Source of the DNA: a virus
Taxonomy: Duplodnaviria; Heunggongvirae; Uroviricota; Caudoviricetes
IMG/VR virus record: IMGVR_UViG_2541047119_000012
Coordinates: 1 to 11,855 of that record
Strand: one strand, 5' to 3'
Length of the DNA: 11,855 bases
Under the pieces are notes generated by a model, which saw only the letters and a program-made list of their open reading frames with translations, was not told the origin of the DNA and did no database searches. A program made the translations under genes and the position numbers. Positions 1 to 5,805 of the stretch are shown here, in pieces (within the stretch, counting starts at the first letter, position 1; each line of letters opens with the position of its first letter).

Positions 1-1
1 C

Positions 2-319
2 CATCACAGTGATAAAGGTTCTCAGTATGTATCACTGGCCTATACGGAGCGACTAAAAGAAGCCGGATTACTGGCATCAACAGGGAGTACAGGCGACTCG
101 TATGACAACGCGATGGCTGAGAGCATCAATGGTCTTTACAAAGCGGAGGTAATACACCGTAAGAGCTGGAAAAACCGTGCAGAAGTGGAACTGGCCACAC
201 TAACGTGGGTGGACTGGTATAACAATCGACGATTGCTGGGAAGGCTGGGCCATACTCCTCCGGCAGAAGCAGAAAAAGCTTATTATGCTTCCATCGGAAA
301 CGATGATCTGGCAGCCTGA
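2..319 (+). mobile_element. IS3-family-like transposase (rve/DDE integrase fold), C-terminal part; 5' end lies outside the window
   Basis: Frame open from position 2 to the stop at 317-319. Translation ...HSDKGSQYVSLAYTERLKEAGLLASTGSTGDSYDNAMAESINGLYKAEVIH...LTWVDWYNNRRLLGRLGHTPPAEAEKAYY shows the DDE-transposase C-terminal signature. The right end of the IS is not resolvable by eye; a GC hairpin at about 349-371 may lie in the terminal region. Confidence 0.75.
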
Positions 320-720
320 GTTCACAGATAAAACACTCTCCAGGAAACCCGGGGCGGTTCAGCCGCCCGGATGGATTGGGTTATGAGCCCGTCGTCCGGT
401 GATGCTCTTCTCTGTTTTGTAAAAAGGACGGTACCAGCCGGAAGCAAGGGTACAAGCTGGTACCGCTAAGACTACACACAGCATAAAGTTGTGGTGCCGG
501 GTGCCTCCCGGTGCCTGGCGAAGGTTGCACACCAGGCGGGTGGGTATCCACAGAAGGTCGACTGTCAGCCTCAACCTTAACCCGCGTGCGCTGAGCCGCA
601 TTCACCACAACGCTAAGGATTCTCTCTGGTTGAAAATACTTAGCTGTTATGTGCCTGTCTTTTCACCACTTCAGGCTCGGTGGTATCCTTTTAAGCCCGT
701 ATACATAAAAGGAAAATCAA

Positions 721-966
721 ATGACTTTTGATGAAAAAGAACTTGATAATGCAATTAATAAAATCATCGTAACGTCGCTCTTTTCCTGTCTCAGCGACAC
801 TCAGCAAAAACAGTTCTACGAATCGGCTTTCAACATGATCGAGCGTTGTTGTTTCTGCGATGCCGACGAGTTACCTGAAAAAATCAGGAAACAGTTGGCT
901 GATGCTCTTCGAGTGCGACTTTCTGACCAATTTTCTGAAATGTACTCTCCGAATTTGGACAAATAG
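721..966 (+). CDS. hypothetical small protein (81 aa)
   Basis: ATG preceded by AAAAGGAAAA Shine-Dalgarno-like sequence at about 8 nt. No recognisable motif. Overlaps the 3' end of the convergent ORF 884..1180. Confidence 0.35.
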   Translation: MTFDEKELDNAINKIIVTSLFSCLSDTQQKQFYESAFNMIERCCFCDADELPEKIRKQLADALRVRLSDQFSEMYSPNLDK

Positions 967-1180
967 AAAAAGGCCATTTCCATTCAGGGTCTGATGGAAA
1001 GACTTCAGCCTGTTCTAAAGCACGGCGTAAAGAGAACACAACTCCAGCCATAATCTGATGTTTCCCATTGGTCCAGCTATCGCCGCTCTGATCTACAGGG
1101 GCGGCTATGTCGTATGACCAAACGACTTCACAGTTATTGTTTAAAATCTGGACTTTCATTTCATACACCTGCTTTAACAT
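884..1180 (-). CDS. hypothetical small protein (98 aa, or 91 aa from the second Met)
   Basis: Leftward ORF downstream of the OL-like operators, the position of the first leftward gene (N) in lambda. An AGGTG sits about 7 nt before the second in-frame ATG. Not arginine-rich and no motif recognised. Confidence 0.3.
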   Translation of the reverse strand: MLKQVYEMKVQILNNNCEVVWSYDIAAPVDQSGDSWTNGKHQIMAGVVFSLRRALEQAEVFPSDPEWKWPFSICPNSESTFQKIGQKVALEEHQPTVS

Positions 1181-1366
1181 GAGTGCCTAGTGGCACAACA
1201 TGACTCAACGAATCATCCTGGACTTCATATGCCCCAGGCGGCTACTTCGTGGGCGTCCTGCCTGTTCGTTTTTGACATTTACTGACTGCTTACGACACAT
1301 GCACCGTGTTGCAACCAGATTTTGTTGTAATCCTGTAGTTGGTCTGGAATAAAAGATAAAATTAAA

Positions 1367-1403
1367 TTGCGAGATATGCAAGTGGTATTTGCGAGATATG
1401 CAA
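1367..1403. promoter_or_regulatory. OL-like operator pair: two identical 15-bp sites TTGCGAGATATGCAA (1367-1381, 1389-1403)
   Basis: Exact direct repeat with TTGC-N7-GCAA symmetry, the same pattern as the site TTGCGTGATAAGCAA in the cI-cro intergenic region. On the minus strand a TTGCAT -35-like hexamer overlaps the sites. Confidence 0.45.
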
Positions 1404-1415
1404 ATTTATAGGTAA

Positions 1416-1437
1416 TAAAAAGCCACCTTTCGGTGGC
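1416..1437 (-). terminator. intrinsic terminator downstream of the repressor gene (minus strand)
   Basis: GCCACC-TTTC-GGTGGC hairpin (1422-1437). On the minus strand it is followed by a T-run (plus-strand AAAAA at 1417-1421), about 20 nt past the cI stop. Confidence 0.6.
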
Positions 1438-1457
1438 CGATGGATGGGATATTGAGG

Positions 1458-2150
1458 TTAATTATGTCTCTTAAGGGTTTGCGACTGACTGATTAAGACC
1501 TTTCCAAAGACCATGAATCGGTGTTCGTTTTCGCTAGTAATTCCCCATTCACGGTAAATCTGGTTATCAGAAATCACCAGCAGTTTGTCAGGAATCATTT
1601 GAAGTCTTTTAACGTATATTTTGTCATCAAAACCAAAGACATATATACCATCACCATCAAACTGATTGATGCTGACATCAACGAAGATGAGATCTCCTGG
1701 CTCAATGGTTGGACACATACTGTCCCCACGAACGTTGATAACTTTGATGTGATTGGCTGGTCGTCCGCCGAACATTGATACAGCATTATCAGTTCTGTAT
1801 TCGATGGCATGAATCACATCAATGACATCACCGCCCTGGATAAGGCCATTTCCCGCACTGGCACTGATATCCAGCATTTCAATACGGAACACATCCTTCA
1901 CCTGCGCAACATCCTCATTATTACTGTTTTTATATACAGTATTACTTTTGTGGGCAGAGGTAAAGAGATCAGCAATATCAACACCTAAGCTCTTGGCAAT
2001 ATTACTCAGTGTTTGTTCGGTAAATTGTTTTTGCTTACCCGTTTCTAAGCGCGAGATGTTCGCCGCATCTACTCCTATCGCTTCAGCGAGATCGGCGATT
2101 TTCATGTTCTTCGCTTGGCGAAGTTGTCTGACTCGGTTTCCTATGTTCAT
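1458..2150 (-). CDS. cI: CI-type prophage repressor: N-terminal XRE-family HTH, C-terminal S24 (LexA-like) self-cleaving peptidase domain
   Basis: N-terminus MNIGNRVRQLRQAKNMKIADLAEAIGVDAANISRLETG is an HTH_XRE. C-terminus has GDSMCPTIEPGDLIFVD (catalytic Ser) and a downstream VKRL Lys, the S24 Ser-Lys dyad; Ala-Gly in ...SASAGNG... is a candidate cleavage site. Divergent from the cro-like gene. No SD before the ATG, so the mRNA is probably leaderless. Confidence 0.9.
   Translation of the reverse strand: MNIGNRVRQLRQAKNMKIADLAEAIGVDAANISRLETGKQKQFTEQTLSNIAKSLGVDIADLFTSAHKSNTVYKNSNNEDVAQVKDVFRIEMLDISASAGNGLIQGGDVIDVIHAIEYRTDNAVSMFGGRPANHIKVINVRGDSMCPTIEPGDLIFVDVSINQFDGDGIYVFGFDDKIYVKRLQMIPDKLLVISDNQIYREWGITSENEHRFMVFGKVLISQSQTLKRHN
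1922..1941. promoter_or_regulatory. LexA (SOS) box-like palindrome TACTGTTTTTATATACAGTA inside the cI coding sequence
   Basis: CTGT-N8-ACAG with an all-A/T spacer and TA flanks, close to the E. coli LexA box consensus TACTGTATATATATACAGTA. My by-eye scan of CTGT occurrences found no other copy in the window. Confidence 0.45.
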
Positions 2151-2247
2151 GCGTTTATTACATTTCTTTATTGCGTGATAAGCAAATCAACTTGCGCAAA
2201 ATAATTGCGTGAAATAACATGCATAACGCGCAATATTTGGAGGGCGT
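2151..2247. promoter_or_regulatory. OR-like divergent promoter/operator region between cI and cro
   Basis: Operator-like sites TTGCGTGATAAGCAA (2171-2185), palindrome TTGCGCAA (2192-2199), TTGCGTGAAATAACA (2206-2220) and inverted ATTGCGCG (2227-2234). Rightward promoter candidate: -35 TTGCGC (2192-2197), 17-bp spacer, -10 TAACAT (2215-2220), then GGAGGG RBS before the cro ATG. Confidence 0.6.
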
Positions 2248-2508
2248 ATGCAATCACCATTACGAAATGTGCGTAAGGCGCATGGTTTCACTTTGCAGCA
2301 TGTTGCTGCGGGTGTTCAAGTCAATCCAGCGACGTTGAGTCGTATTGAGAGGCTGGAGCAGATTCCATCTATCGAGCTTGCAGAACGTTTAGCCAATTTT
2401 TTTAAGGGTGAAGTCAGCGAAATGCAGATTCTTTATCCGGCACGTTTTCAATCTAGCCAAAACCAGAATGGGTTTAAACCACAGGAACAGGAGGTGAACC
2501 GTGGGTAA
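2248..2508 (+). CDS. cro: Cro-like HTH transcriptional regulator (XRE family)
   Basis: Divergent from cI. GFTLQHVAAGVQVNPATLSRIER is an HTH. GGAGGG RBS. Its stop overlaps the GTG start of the next gene. Confidence 0.7.
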   Translation: MQSPLRNVRKAHGFTLQHVAAGVQVNPATLSRIERLEQIPSIELAERLANFFKGEVSEMQILYPARFQSSQNQNGFKPQEQEVNRG

Positions 2509-3052
2509 GCATCACTGGAAAGTAGAAAAACAGCCTGAGTGGTACGTGAAAGCTGTCAGAAAAACTATCGCAGCGTTGCCGGGGGGGTACGCTGAAGCTG
2601 CTGACTGGCTGGATGTAACAGAGAACGCATTATTTAACCGCCTTCGTGCCGATGGCGATCAGATTTTCCCGCTGGGATGGGCAATGATTTTGCAACGTGC
2701 TGGTGGAACTCACTTCATTGCTGACGCTGTGGCGCAGTCTGCAAATGGCGTCTTTGTGTCTCTTCCTGATGTCGAGGATGTGGACAACGCCGATATCAAC
2801 CAACGCCTGCTGGAGGTCATTGAACAGATCGGCAGTTATTCAAAACAGATTCGTTCAGCAATTGAAGACGGTGTAGTGGAACCGCATGAGAAGACAGCAA
2901 TTAACGACGAGCTGTACCTCTCAATTTCGAAGCTGCAGGAGCATGCAGCACTGGTCTACAAAATTTTTTGCATTTCAGAAAGTAATGACGCCCGCGAGTG
3001 TGCAGCTCCGGGCGCCGTGGCGTGTCGTGACTGTGGAGAAACTAACGCATGA
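2501..3052 (+). CDS. YdaT/CII-like prophage regulatory protein (183 aa)
   Basis: GTG start after GGAGG RBS, translationally coupled to cro. Sits in the cII position of the immunity module. Family assignment is from memory of YdaT/CP76-type proteins, not from a search. Confidence 0.5.
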
Positions 3053-3387
3053 ACAGTTTAACAACACACTACCGTCGCTCGCAACTGATTGCACTTCCTG
3101 TACCGGGTGGAAAAGCGAAGGTGGAGTATTGCTATGCAGTGAATGTACCAGGTGACAGGGAAATTGTAACCCACAGCTTTGCAGAGTGGGCTGTGGGTGA
3201 TTTCAACAGGCAAAAGGAGACAGTCCTTTGCGACAAGTTAACCGCTGGTTCAAAGATCACTACGGAGTGCCCGTCAGAGTCATTCGTTGGGAACCGGAAA
3301 CACAACGGGTTATCTACCTCCGCGAAGGCTATGAGCATGAGTGCTTCAGCCCGCTCGAACAGTTTCGTCGTAAATTCAGGGAAATAG
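3049..3387 (+). CDS. hypothetical protein; the ORF as drawn is probably chimeric (5' part plausible, 3' part doubtful)
   Basis: ATG overlaps the upstream stop (ATGA) with GGAG about 7 nt upstream, so the start is credible. The 3' half is Ser-rich and low-complexity with rarer codons, while another frame looks coding (see 3228..3407). Confidence 0.3.
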
Positions 3388-3407
3388 AGGTCGGTCATGA
3401 GCACTAA
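3228..3407 (+). CDS. candidate small protein (59 aa) with TTG start, not in the ORF track
   Basis: AAAGGAGA at 3212-3219, 8 nt before TTG at 3228. Translation [59 protein letters not shown] is protein-like. Stop overlaps the start of the replication gene. May instead be the 3' part of a frameshifted gene begun at 3049. Confidence 0.3.
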
Positions 3408-4829: not shown

Positions 4830-5482
4830 TGAGTAATAAATATTGCCAGGCGCTGGTGGAGCTGCGGAACAAACCAGCCCATGAACTGAAGGAAGTGGGC
4901 GATCAGTGGCGCACGCCGGACAACATTTTCTGGGGAATTAACACCCTGTTTGGCCCGTTTGTTCTGGATCTGTTCACTGACGGTGATAACGCCAAATGTG
5001 CCGCTTATTACACTGCGGAAGACAACGCGCTGGCGCATGACTGGTCAGAACGTCTTGCGGAGCTTAAAGGTGCTGCCTTTGGTAATCCCCCATACAGCCG
5101 CGCCAGTCAGCATGAGGGGCAATACATCACCGGCATGCGTTACATCATGAAGCATGCCAGTGCCATGCGTGATAAAGGCGGGCGCTATGTTTTCCTGATC
5201 AAAGCTGCCACCAGCGAAGTGTGGTGGCCGGAAGATGCAGATCATATTGCTTTTATTCGCGGGCGTATTGGTTTTGAACTGCCTGCCTGGTTTATCCCGA
5301 AGGATGAGAAGCAGGTGCCGACAGGCGCTTTCTTCGCTGGTGCTATTGCTGTTTTCGACAAGACCTGGAAGGGACCGGCAATCAGCTACATCGGGCGCTA
5401 TGAACTTGAGGCATGTGGTGAGGCCTTTCTGGCGCAGGTTCGCCAGCAGGCAGAAAAACTGGTCAGGGAGATGGCGGCATGA
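4829..5482 (+). CDS. phage Dam-type DNA N6-adenine methyltransferase
   Basis: N-terminal WRTPDNIF motif and catalytic NPPY (...AAFGNPPYSRA...). ATG overlaps the upstream stop; the GTG at 4796 in the ORF track is less likely. Confidence 0.85.
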   Translation: MSNKYCQALVELRNKPAHELKEVGDQWRTPDNIFWGINTLFGPFVLDLFTDGDNAKCAAYYTAEDNALAHDWSERLAELKGAAFGNPPYSRASQHEGQYITGMRYIMKHASAMRDKGGRYVFLIKAATSEVWWPEDADHIAFIRGRIGFELPAWFIPKDEKQVPTGAFFAGAIAVFDKTWKGPAISYIGRYELEACGEAFLAQVRQQAEKLVREMAA

Positions 5483-5805
5483 CGACGTTAACTCAATGCC
5501 AGCAGCAGGTGCTGGATATGCTGATTTCTTATCAGAAAGAACGTGGCTTCCCGCCAACCAATCAGGAGGTGGCAACCATGCTGGGATACCGTTCAGTGAA
5601 TGCAGCGGTGGAGCATCTTCGCGCACTGGAGAAAAAAGGCGTCATCACGATAAAGCGTGGCGTGGCCCGGGGGATAACGCTTCATATCGCGGTGAAGGAC
5701 GACGACAGCGAGGCGGTCGGGATTATCCGCGCACTGCTTGCCGGTGAGGAAAACGCAAGGCTGCGTGCAACCCACTGGTTACATGAGAGGGACCTGAAAG
5801 TATGA
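5479..5805 (+). CDS. LexA N-terminal DNA-binding-domain protein with no S24 peptidase domain (108 aa)
   Basis: LTQCQQQVLDMLISYQKERGFPPTNQEVATMLGYRSVNAAVEHLRALEKKGVITIKRGVARGITL aligns by eye along its length with the E. coli LexA N-terminus (…LTARQQEVFDLI…[44 protein letters not shown]…). No Ala-Gly cleavage or Ser-Lys peptidase region follows. GGGAG RBS; ATGA overlap with the methyltransferase stop. Confidence 0.8.
   Translation: MTTLTQCQQQVLDMLISYQKERGFPPTNQEVATMLGYRSVNAAVEHLRALEKKGVITIKRGVARGITLHIAVKDDDSEAVGIIRALLAGEENARLRATHWLHERDLKV

Follow-up and report, generated by a model that had tools for sequence, protein, structure and literature searches.

An SfII-type lambdoid immunity region with probable operators on both sides of cI and a candidate leaderless repressor mRNA

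In phage lambda, the repressor gene cI is expressed from a leaderless transcript. A leaderless mRNA has also been demonstrated, by 5' RACE and N-terminal sequencing, for paaR2, the regulator in the cI position of the E. coli O157:H7 prophage CP-933P (PMC8630535). Shigella phage SfII is inducible (PMC3772137), and no N gene has been reported for the group of SfII/SfV-type phages (PMC3851460). In the literature we searched, we found neither binding nor transcript data on the SfII immunity type, nor the 15-bp operators discussed below; the SfII genome paper and the SfIV paper contain no operator description, and the SfII record carries no operator annotation.

We analysed a stretch of 11,855 bp of viral DNA (the window), and read its immunity region as the switch between lysis and lysogeny of a lambdoid prophage of the SfII type, integrated at thrW in E. 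coli O157:H7, a reading to which we give a probability of roughly 0.85. The region follows the known lambda plan, with repressor sites flanking cI and a probably leaderless cI mRNA, and we therefore regard the switch as real but ordinary. Its DNA is about 99% (98.8%) identical to that of SfII (KC736978; SfII_37-39) and its CI protein 100% identical. The SfII record annotates cI, cro, cII and a terminator across the same region, and the assignments of cI and cro in the initial annotation were borne out by Pfam and PHROG.

The repressor gene (1458-2150, minus strand; phrog_4) encodes 230 amino acids (WP_001020634.1), and its domain content can be read directly: an N-terminal HTH_3 domain and a C-terminal Peptidase_S24 domain (Pfam E = 6e-19 and 1e-11), the HTH match beginning at residue 7 and the S24 match spanning residues 104-218. 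The residues associated with self-cleavage, Ala99-Gly100, Ser144 (in GDSM) and Lys181 (in VKRL), are invariant across the CI alignment, and from this Ala-Gly site and Ser/Lys dyad we predict RecA-dependent self-cleavage. A sequence search of the PDB returned no close solved relative for either CI or Cro. Downstream of an in-frame stop, the ATG at 2150 is the earliest possible start, and the CI N-terminus is conserved from Met1. The mEp460 annotation starts at Met16, which we rejected since it would delete helix 1 of the HTH, and the Pfam match already begins at residue 7. As the initial annotation had noted, the ATG has no Shine-Dalgarno sequence; nothing resembling AGGAGG occurs 5' of 2150.

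We compared ten immunity regions encoding CI proteins that are 100-67% identical, which gave nine distinct OR sequences for alignment. A scan of IMG/VR with CI yielded 80 loci, each about 100% identical, which made them of no use for footprinting, and scanning genome contigs gave four usable loci; the diversity in the set came from tblastn against phage records.

A search of the window for the proposed operator design, TTGC-N7-GCAA, recovered three exact copies where 0.51 are expected, and only 3 of 200 shuffled sequences held at least three. All three copies are confined to two intergenic stretches adjoining cI, so that they flank the gene as had been claimed. Copies with one mismatch show no window-wide enrichment (11 vs 9.1 expected), and the meaningful signal therefore lies in the exact, clustered copies only. 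A weight matrix built from 27 distinct sites of the ten related phages picked out four places in the window that score 18 bits or more (1367, 1389, 2171 and 2219) and none in shuffled windows. In all ten relatives, TTGCG-N6-GCAA half-sites occur at four fixed places while cores, flanks, spacers and OL spacing vary, and the CI recognition helix is conserved together with the half-sites. These comparisons suggest a 15-bp dyad, TTGCG-N6-GCAA, as the CI operator consensus.

Two of the sites are identical and lie past the cI terminator, as described in the initial annotation: OL1 (TTGCGAGATATGCAA, 1367-1381; 21.1 bits), which is distal to cI, and OL2 (the same 15-mer, 1389-1403; at least 18 bits and kept in the relatives), which is nearest to the terminator. 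They are 22 bp apart from centre to centre, compared with 22-24 bp among the relatives, and TTGC[G/A]-N6-GCAA is kept at OL1 in 10/10 relatives around a variable core. The right half of OL1 supplies a putative -35 element for the leftward promoter PL (TTGCAT, 1381-1376, minus strand), with a putative -10 element 17 bp away (TATCTT, 1353-1358, minus strand) and a predicted start at about 1346; OL1 and OL2 would then cover the -35 and the region upstream of it. The sequence AAGATA stands exactly 8 nt left of OL1 in 8/10 relatives, and ATGATA takes its place in a ninth. A consensus promoter scan missed this -10, and we infer it from conservation instead. More generally, that scan called none of PL, PRM and PR, each matching at only 7-8 of 12 positions, and the candidates for all three promoters therefore rest on their conservation.

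The claim that a terminator directly follows cI also stands. An intrinsic terminator (1412-1438, minus strand) begins 19 nt past the cI stop, and consists of a 7-bp GC stem closed by a GAAA loop (arms GGCCACC and GGTGGCU) followed by a U tract, UUUUAUUA (1438-1421, minus strand). Its folding energy is -13.2 kcal/mol (z = -3.5), and in the relatives the stem differs in sequence with its complementarity kept. There is no open reading frame between the cI stop (1458) and the OL sites, so the rexAB position is indeed empty, which we consider unremarkable.

Between cI and cro lies a gap of 97 bp. The third exact copy is found here as had been proposed, in the OR3 position proximal to cI (TTGCGTGATAAGCAA, 2171-2185; 21.2 bits), where it would cover the -35 and spacer of PRM. 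The initial annotation also described degenerate copies in this gap, and this holds in part: the site in the OR1 position (2219-2233; ATGCATAACGCGCAA, or TTGCGCGTTATGCAT on the other strand) is strong at 20.1 bits, and its ATGC-N6-CGCAA is kept in all relatives, but the remaining two candidates (2192-2206 and 2205-2219) score below 7 bits. We rejected 2205-2219 as an operator, as its TTGCG is also absent in F1055, C. amalonaticus and Eeyore. The middle of the region does contain ACTTGCGCAA (2190-2199), identical in all relatives; of the two low-scoring candidates, only the stretch TTGCGCAA (2192-2199) within it is invariant. It probably forms one half of a weak middle operator, in the register 2185-2199 (15 bits in one relative, below 7 bits here) or 2192-2206 (12-15 bits in three distant relatives). 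A tripartite OR of the lambda type, with three sites spaced by about 23-24 bp, was not found: only two sites score, 48 bp apart, and the middle candidates stay below 7 bits.

The invariant block also contains a putative -35 element for the rightward promoter PR (TTGCGC, 2192-2197, plus strand), so that TTGCGCAA may serve both as the PR -35 and as part of the weak middle site. With a putative -10 element 17 bp away (TAACAT, 2215-2220, plus strand; TAATAT in some relatives) and a start at about 2226, this is the best conserved rightward promoter candidate, and the block TAAnATGC around the -10 is conserved. The OR1-position site would lie over this start. Both scoring OR sites thus overlap the best conserved promoter candidates, with the best-matching site over PRM and not PR, so the lambda order of site occupancy cannot be assumed. 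Downstream, cro (2239-2508, plus strand; HTH_3) encodes 86 amino acids, with a Shine-Dalgarno GGAGG at 2239-2243 and its ATG at 2248. Codons 8-12 contain a possible extra operator (GTGCGTAAGGCGCAT, 2269-2283) of 13 bits here and 9.9-16.4 bits in all relatives; synonymous recodings match the observed score at P = 0.004-0.10, and we propose this site only tentatively. The next gene (2501-3052, plus strand) encodes a CII-like regulator, YmfL of the Phage_CP76 family (PF06892, E = 1.5e-13; phrog_101).

The initial annotation further suggested that the cI mRNA is leaderless, and the comparison supports this proposal. A putative PRM -10 element, TGTAAT (2157-2162, minus strand), occupies positions -12 to -7 counted from the A of the cI ATG. 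It is invariant in the nine distinct aligned OR sequences, the 6 nt that separate it from the ATG being variable, and a systematic scan ranked it as the top conserved leftward promoter candidate. A putative -35 element, TTGCTT (2185-2180, minus strand), lies 17 bp from it within the 2171-2185 operator. The invariant spacing of TGTAAT, the missing Shine-Dalgarno sequence and the lack of an upstream start together argue for a leaderless transcript, in which PRM would start at the A of the cI ATG, as in lambda. Among the other explanations, the one that survives best accepts the operators and places the 5' end elsewhere: transcription from PRM would begin further upstream, or most cI expression would come from a CII-dependent establishment promoter, and translation would begin from a leader without a Shine-Dalgarno sequence, for instance an A/U-rich, S1-dependent one. 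The PRM hexamers match at 8/12 positions and were missed by the scan, a -35 inside a strong operator would make the promoter self-repressing, and a second, weaker candidate (TTGATT-17-AGAAAT) would place the start about 5 nt upstream. However, the hexamers of this alternative show no conservation, no leftward -10-like element other than TGTAAT is invariant across the relatives, TGTAAT sits at exactly the leaderless distance, and a leaderless transcript from the cI position is already known in CP-933P (PMC8630535). We therefore think a leadered cI mRNA unlikely and favour the leaderless one. No OR2-like middle site scores in this lineage, and activation of PRM by CI is accordingly unsupported.

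It is also conceivable that the switch is a relic, its genes and sites persisting in a defective prophage through recent descent and idle in this strain. The end of an IS3-family transposase occupies positions 1-319, the left arm of the prophage is interrupted by an IS element and truncated, and this arm differs from that of an intact thrW prophage; with the left arm cut, PL may no longer serve its original operon. On the other hand, cI, cro and every operator are intact and match exactly those of strains whose prophage is fuller, the viable SfII has an identical CI, and an intact repressor would still confer immunity. These observations make an idle relic improbable.

An argument for linking the repeats to CI comes from an exchange of modules that is directly visible in the sequences. 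Heteroimmune SfV shares the same backbone with a different cI, and has another repeat family both past the terminator and in the cI-cro gap. Conversely, mEp460 and Stx2a_1447 have the same type of cI and the same operators, without the leader motif that adjoins OL here (described below). Operators and repressor have been exchanged as one module. That the repeats are instead promoter -35 elements, or sites for Cro only, the CII-like protein or a host factor, is very improbable: a TTGC half-site does coincide with the predicted -35 at all three promoters, but both half-sites are kept 15 bp apart, also at OL2 and 2219-2233 where no -35 is predicted, the repeats differ along with cI in SfV and remain linked to cI where the left neighbour is exchanged, and the dyad geometry suits an HTH dimer.

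Taken as CI operators, the sites point to a mechanism in which CI binding, promoter use, the order of site occupancy and the 5' end of the cI mRNA are all inferred. A CI dimer, combining the HTH with a LexA-like self-cleaving S24 domain, would recognise TTGCG-N6-GCAA on both sides of its gene, Cro would presumably bind the same sites, and RecA-stimulated cleavage at Ala99-Gly100 would lift repression.

The comparison also revealed an unplanned by-product, and perhaps the part that a specialist would find worth testing: a structured motif of 69 nt (1205-1273, minus strand), detected by covariation. It belongs to the module to the left of the immunity region and would span about +73 to +141 in the transcript from the putative PL. 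Its two helices are paired in 96.3% of alignment cells, compared with 66.9% in shuffles, and carry 107 double-sided changes, compared with 29.5; RNAalifold recovers the same two helices. Counts of G.U and A.C, 8 against 9, favour neither strand of the motif as the functional one. A core of about 26 nt is unpaired and almost invariant, and is kept from lambdoid phages of E. coli, Shigella and Salmonella to Pectobacterium, Aeromonas and a lytic T5-like Providencia phage. A covariance model of the motif (R1) gave one significant match per locus in 56/71 sources, without any second copy, and none in the others. Among 24 diverse loci, most have the motif 150-250 bp past the 3' end of a cI-like gene, and in every annotated context examined it falls in the early leftward leader, at the predicted 5' end wherever a promoter could be read; in Providencia phage PR1, it follows a TTGCTT-16-TATACT promoter by a few nt. 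Folded without constraints, the whole PL leader does not outperform shuffled sequences (z = -0.3), so the motif is revealed only by comparative analysis. Rfam has no match in the window at the gathering score and none for 1150-1420 at E up to 10, and the core was absent from the literature searched.

We are highly confident that this motif is real. That it is a new class of cis-acting element of nascent RNA, with a function in antitermination or otherwise directed at RNA polymerase, is a speculative reading that we hold to be doubtful. It might be a processive antiterminator of the put kind, standing in for N in SfII/SfV-type phages, and the step governed by the OL operators would then be one of RNA-based antitermination; alternatively, it might be a 5' element through which a conserved host machine is engaged. 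Like the put elements of HK022, the motif is structured and about 70 nt long, and in several phages it sits right at the 5' end of the early leftward transcript, in a phage group reported to lack N (PMC9378689; PMC3851460). However, put consists of two side-by-side stem-loops, while the motif has an enclosing stem with an inner hairpin, and put copies follow both PL and PR, while the motif occurs once per phage and never after PR. We found no similarity to putL or putR beyond 8-9-nt words by blastn-short, and the R1 model finds nothing in HK022.

For the switch itself, little is at stake: the finding adds one immunity type, with the operator consensus TTGCG-N6-GCAA, to the lambdoid catalogue, and the list of sites provides ready targets for EMSA and reporter assays. 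The immunity type is shared by the Stx2a-converting phages Stx2a_1447 and WGPS2, whose CI is 96% identical and whose operator consensus is the same. Given this common immunity type, a resident thrW prophage with this CI could cross-repress an O157:H7 toxin phage or be co-induced with it.

The closely similar SfII region differs by one base in OL2 (TTGCGATATATGCAA). The Stx phage 933W, whose repressor and operator sequences are not known to be related to those described here, also has only two OL sites. Its switch is likewise lambdoid and deviates from lambda in site number and cooperativity (PMC3317979). CP-933P, with PaaR2, YdaS and YdaT, has a lambda-like switch with a 97-bp intergenic region and both OR and OL sets, but uses other proteins and 18-bp palindromes (half-site consensus GTTTAGTAA), and has a toxin-antitoxin pair after its cI-position regulator where a terminator directly follows here (PMC8630535).

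The proposed likeness to lambda OL/OR holds in outline. Both phages have divergent cI and cro genes with dyad operators between them, and the same operator family past cI at a leftward promoter, and here the half-sites are kept in relatives and replaced together with cI in SfV. Both have a CI that joins an HTH to a self-cleaving C-terminal domain, a cI-proximal site overlapping PRM and a cro-proximal site overlapping PR, and a cI start without a Shine-Dalgarno sequence behind a -10 placed for a leaderless transcript. The likeness does not extend to the number and arrangement of sites: OL has two and not three, and OR consists of two strong sites 48 bp apart plus the invariant TTGCGCAA, rather than three evenly spaced ones. 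In addition, the 15-bp operator is unrelated to the lambda 17-mer, rexAB is missing, and the CII-like protein is one of the CP76/YmfL family. The distance between OL and OR is about 800 bp here, compared with about 2.4 kb in lambda. If measured, the layout would make a useful contrast to lambda, with its strong site over PRM, the lack of a clear OR2, an OL of two sites and perhaps one more site within cro.

The region around cI belongs to the lambdoid immunity-region kind. The cI gene (1458-2150, minus strand; 230 aa, HTH_3 and Peptidase_S24) has the residues Ala99-Gly100, Ser144 and Lys181, and cro (2248-2508, plus strand) is an HTH_3 gene; a PDB sequence search found no close solved structure of CI or Cro. 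An intrinsic terminator lies 19 nt past the cI stop (1438-1421, minus strand; -13.2 kcal/mol, z = -3.5), followed by two identical 15-bp sites. The initial annotation had proposed that nothing occupies the rexAB position and that the cI ATG lacks a Shine-Dalgarno sequence, and both points were borne out: there are zero open reading frames between the cI stop and the OL-like site pair, and GGAGG is found upstream of cro and not of cI. The ATG at 2150 is the earliest possible cI start following an upstream in-frame stop. Absence of rex is not unusual among lambdoid phages.

All three 15-mers previously reported as a single operator family were found in place, two beyond the terminator (OL1, 1367-1381; OL2, 1389-1403) and one in the cI-cro gap (2171-2185). 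Exact copies of TTGC-N7-GCAA occur three times in the window against 0.51 expected, and all three adjoin cI; if one mismatch is tolerated, the pattern shows no overall enrichment (11 observed vs 9.1 expected). Using a weight matrix built from 27 distinct sites of ten related immunity regions, we found four places in the window that reach 18 bits or more (1367, 1389, 2171 and 2219), and none in shuffles. Degenerate copies had also been suggested between cI and cro; the one at 2219 is strong, whereas that at 2205-2219 is not conserved and was rejected as an operator, and that at 2192-2206 scores below 7 bits in the window (three distant relatives alone reach 12-15 bits). The register 2185-2199 reaches 15 bits only in C. 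amalonaticus, and is likewise below 7 bits in the window. At 2190-2199, TTGCGCAA consists of two operator half-sites without the spacer.

We compared ten immunity regions with CI proteins 100-67% identical: the window, SfII, mEp460, Stx2a_1447, Salmonella phage F1055, three Citrobacter genomes, Klebsiella phage Kp4873-4 and Escherichia phage Eeyore. The cI-cro gap aligns across them without gaps, with variation everywhere outside a few invariant blocks. These are CAT at the cI start codon (2148-2150, minus strand), ATTACA at the putative PRM -10 (2157-2162; TGTAAT on the minus strand), TTGCG and GCAA of the OR site adjoining cI (2171-2175 and 2182-2185), ACTTGCGCAA at the putative PR -35 (2190-2199, kept in 10/10 regions), TAAnATGC (2215-2222), which takes in the putative PR -10 and the left half-site over the PR start, and CGCAA (2229-2233), the right half-site there. 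The block at 2190-2199 may also contribute one half-site to a weak middle operator, the other half of which drifts between lineages. At the OL pair, TTGCG-N6-GCAA is kept at both sites while the cores differ and the spacing varies between 22 and 24 bp. Also conserved is the recognition helix of CI, (A/G)AN(I/V)SR(L/V)ETGKQ.

Phage SfV, with the same backbone and an unrelated cI, served as a control. It carries a different repeat (GGGTACA-type), with two copies just past the cI terminator and again in the cI-cro gap. Conversely, mEp460 and Stx2a_1447 have the cI and operators of the window without the leader motif found next to its OL. Since SfV exchanges both elements and these two phages keep both without the motif, repressor and repeats travel together, the defining trait of an immunity module. 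The Stx2a-converting phages Stx2a_1447 and WGPS2 share the window's immunity type and operator consensus (CI identity 96%, consensus kept at 4/4 places), and cross-immunity or co-induction is therefore possible between such phages and the thrW prophage of O157:H7.

The window is 100% identical at 600-3100 to this thrW/proA-adjacent (tRNA-Thr) prophage in many E. coli O157:H7 genomes, and the immunity region of Shigella phage SfII, which is inducible (PMC3772137), is 98.8% identical to the same stretch. As an IS3-family transposase gene (IS1203/IS629-like) occupies positions 1-319 with its 3' end, the left arm of the prophage has been lost in the present copy. This end (1-319, on to about 600) stands where int, xis and the early-left genes stand in FRIK2455, and most of window 1-1400 is matched in one place by only 22 of 5,426 genomes. 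Elsewhere, a 108-aa ORF in the replication/nin region (5479-5805), apart from cI, is labelled in related records either a LexA-family protein or a LexA DNA-binding-domain protein. A 112-aa ORF (3049-3387, phrog_1170) and a 59-aa DUF4222 ORF (3228-3407) overlap in different frames; RefSeq FRIK2455 annotates only the latter, and the SfII record the former.

We infer promoter use and the 5' end of the cI mRNA from position and conservation. Scanning all -35/-10 pairings in nine distinct aligned OR sequences, the top leftward candidate (PRM) was TTGCTT(2185-2180)-17-TGTAAT(2162-2157) and the top rightward candidate (PR) TTGCGC(2192-2197)-17-TAACAT(2215-2220). TGTAAT is invariant at -12 to -7 relative to the first base of the cI ATG, with six variable bases between, which is the geometry expected of a leaderless cI transcript. 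Leaderless cI mRNA from PRM is textbook knowledge for lambda. The cI-position regulator paaR2 of CP-933P (O157:H7) is leaderless by 5' RACE and protein sequencing (PMC8630535). The putative PL would be TTGCAT(1381-1376)-17-TATCTT(1358-1353); in 8/10 relatives the hexamer placed exactly 8 nt to the left of OL1 is AAGATA, and in a ninth it is ATGATA. All three promoters match the consensus weakly (7-8/12), and a consensus promoter scan of the window called none of them.

A further candidate operator, GTGCGTAAGGCGCAT (2269-2283, 13 bits), spans cro codons 8-12 exactly and lies 50 bp to the right of the PR-proximal operator. Across all relatives the equivalent position scores 9.9-16.4 bits, only the core varying, and codon choices (TTG, TCG/GCG, CAT/CAA) keep the half-sites (synonymous recoding P = 0.004-0.10 per lineage). 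As the lineages are related, this codon signal is only suggestive of an extra site. On the plus strand, the 15-mer could also fold into a small hairpin.

Left of the operators, a 69-nt structured motif (1205-1273, minus strand) falls within the putative PL leader and is common to the window, F1055, Eeyore and the heteroimmune SfV. It occurs in 51 phage records and more than 120 IMG/VR contigs, being widespread in temperate enterobacterial phages and present in Aeromonas and T5-like Providencia phages. Other copies lie in the compared loci L001 (3106-3174), L006 (2497-2565), L093 (2313-2381), L217 (Providencia phage PR1, 1482-1552), L218 (1482-1551) and L219 (1482-1550). Its two helices, P1 (1208-1212 with 1265-1269) and P2 (1217-1221 with 1234-1238), covary strongly: over 38 distinct copies, 96.3% of cells are paired vs 66.9% in shuffles (21-48% in slid controls), with 107 double-sided changes vs 29.5 (0/500 shuffles reach 107), and RNAalifold recovered the same helices. 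The unpaired core AGGCAGGAcGCCCACGAAGUAGCC is almost invariant, including in Pectobacterium, Aeromonas and T5-like Providencia phages. No Rfam family matched at E values up to 10, and the core was absent from the literature searched.

A covariance model found one copy per phage, and none in HK022, mEp460 or Stx2a_1447. Because the latter two have this cI type without it, the motif is part of the left module and does not go with cI. Most of 24 diverse loci have it 150-250 bp downstream of a cI-like gene, and in annotated records it falls within the leader of a leftward early operon. In PR1 a TTGCTT-16-TATACT promoter precedes the start of the motif by a few nt. Six nt past the end of the motif there is CGCTCTTTAA (L217 1466-1475, minus strand), resembling boxA of Nus-dependent antitermination sites; no boxA-like word follows the motif in the window.

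As SfII, SfV and SfIV have been reported to lack N (PMC3851460), a put-like role is suggested for the motif. It is, however, unlike HK022 putL and putR in both sequence and layout, and has no second copy after PR. Gene-level annotation was already known in SfII, whose record lists cI with its downstream terminator, cro and cII; the operator consensus is absent from that annotation, the SfII/SfIV papers and the literature searched. Compared with lambda, where OL has three sites, OL here has two; the two strong OR sites are 48 bp apart, the first covering the PRM -35 with its spacer and the second the PR start.
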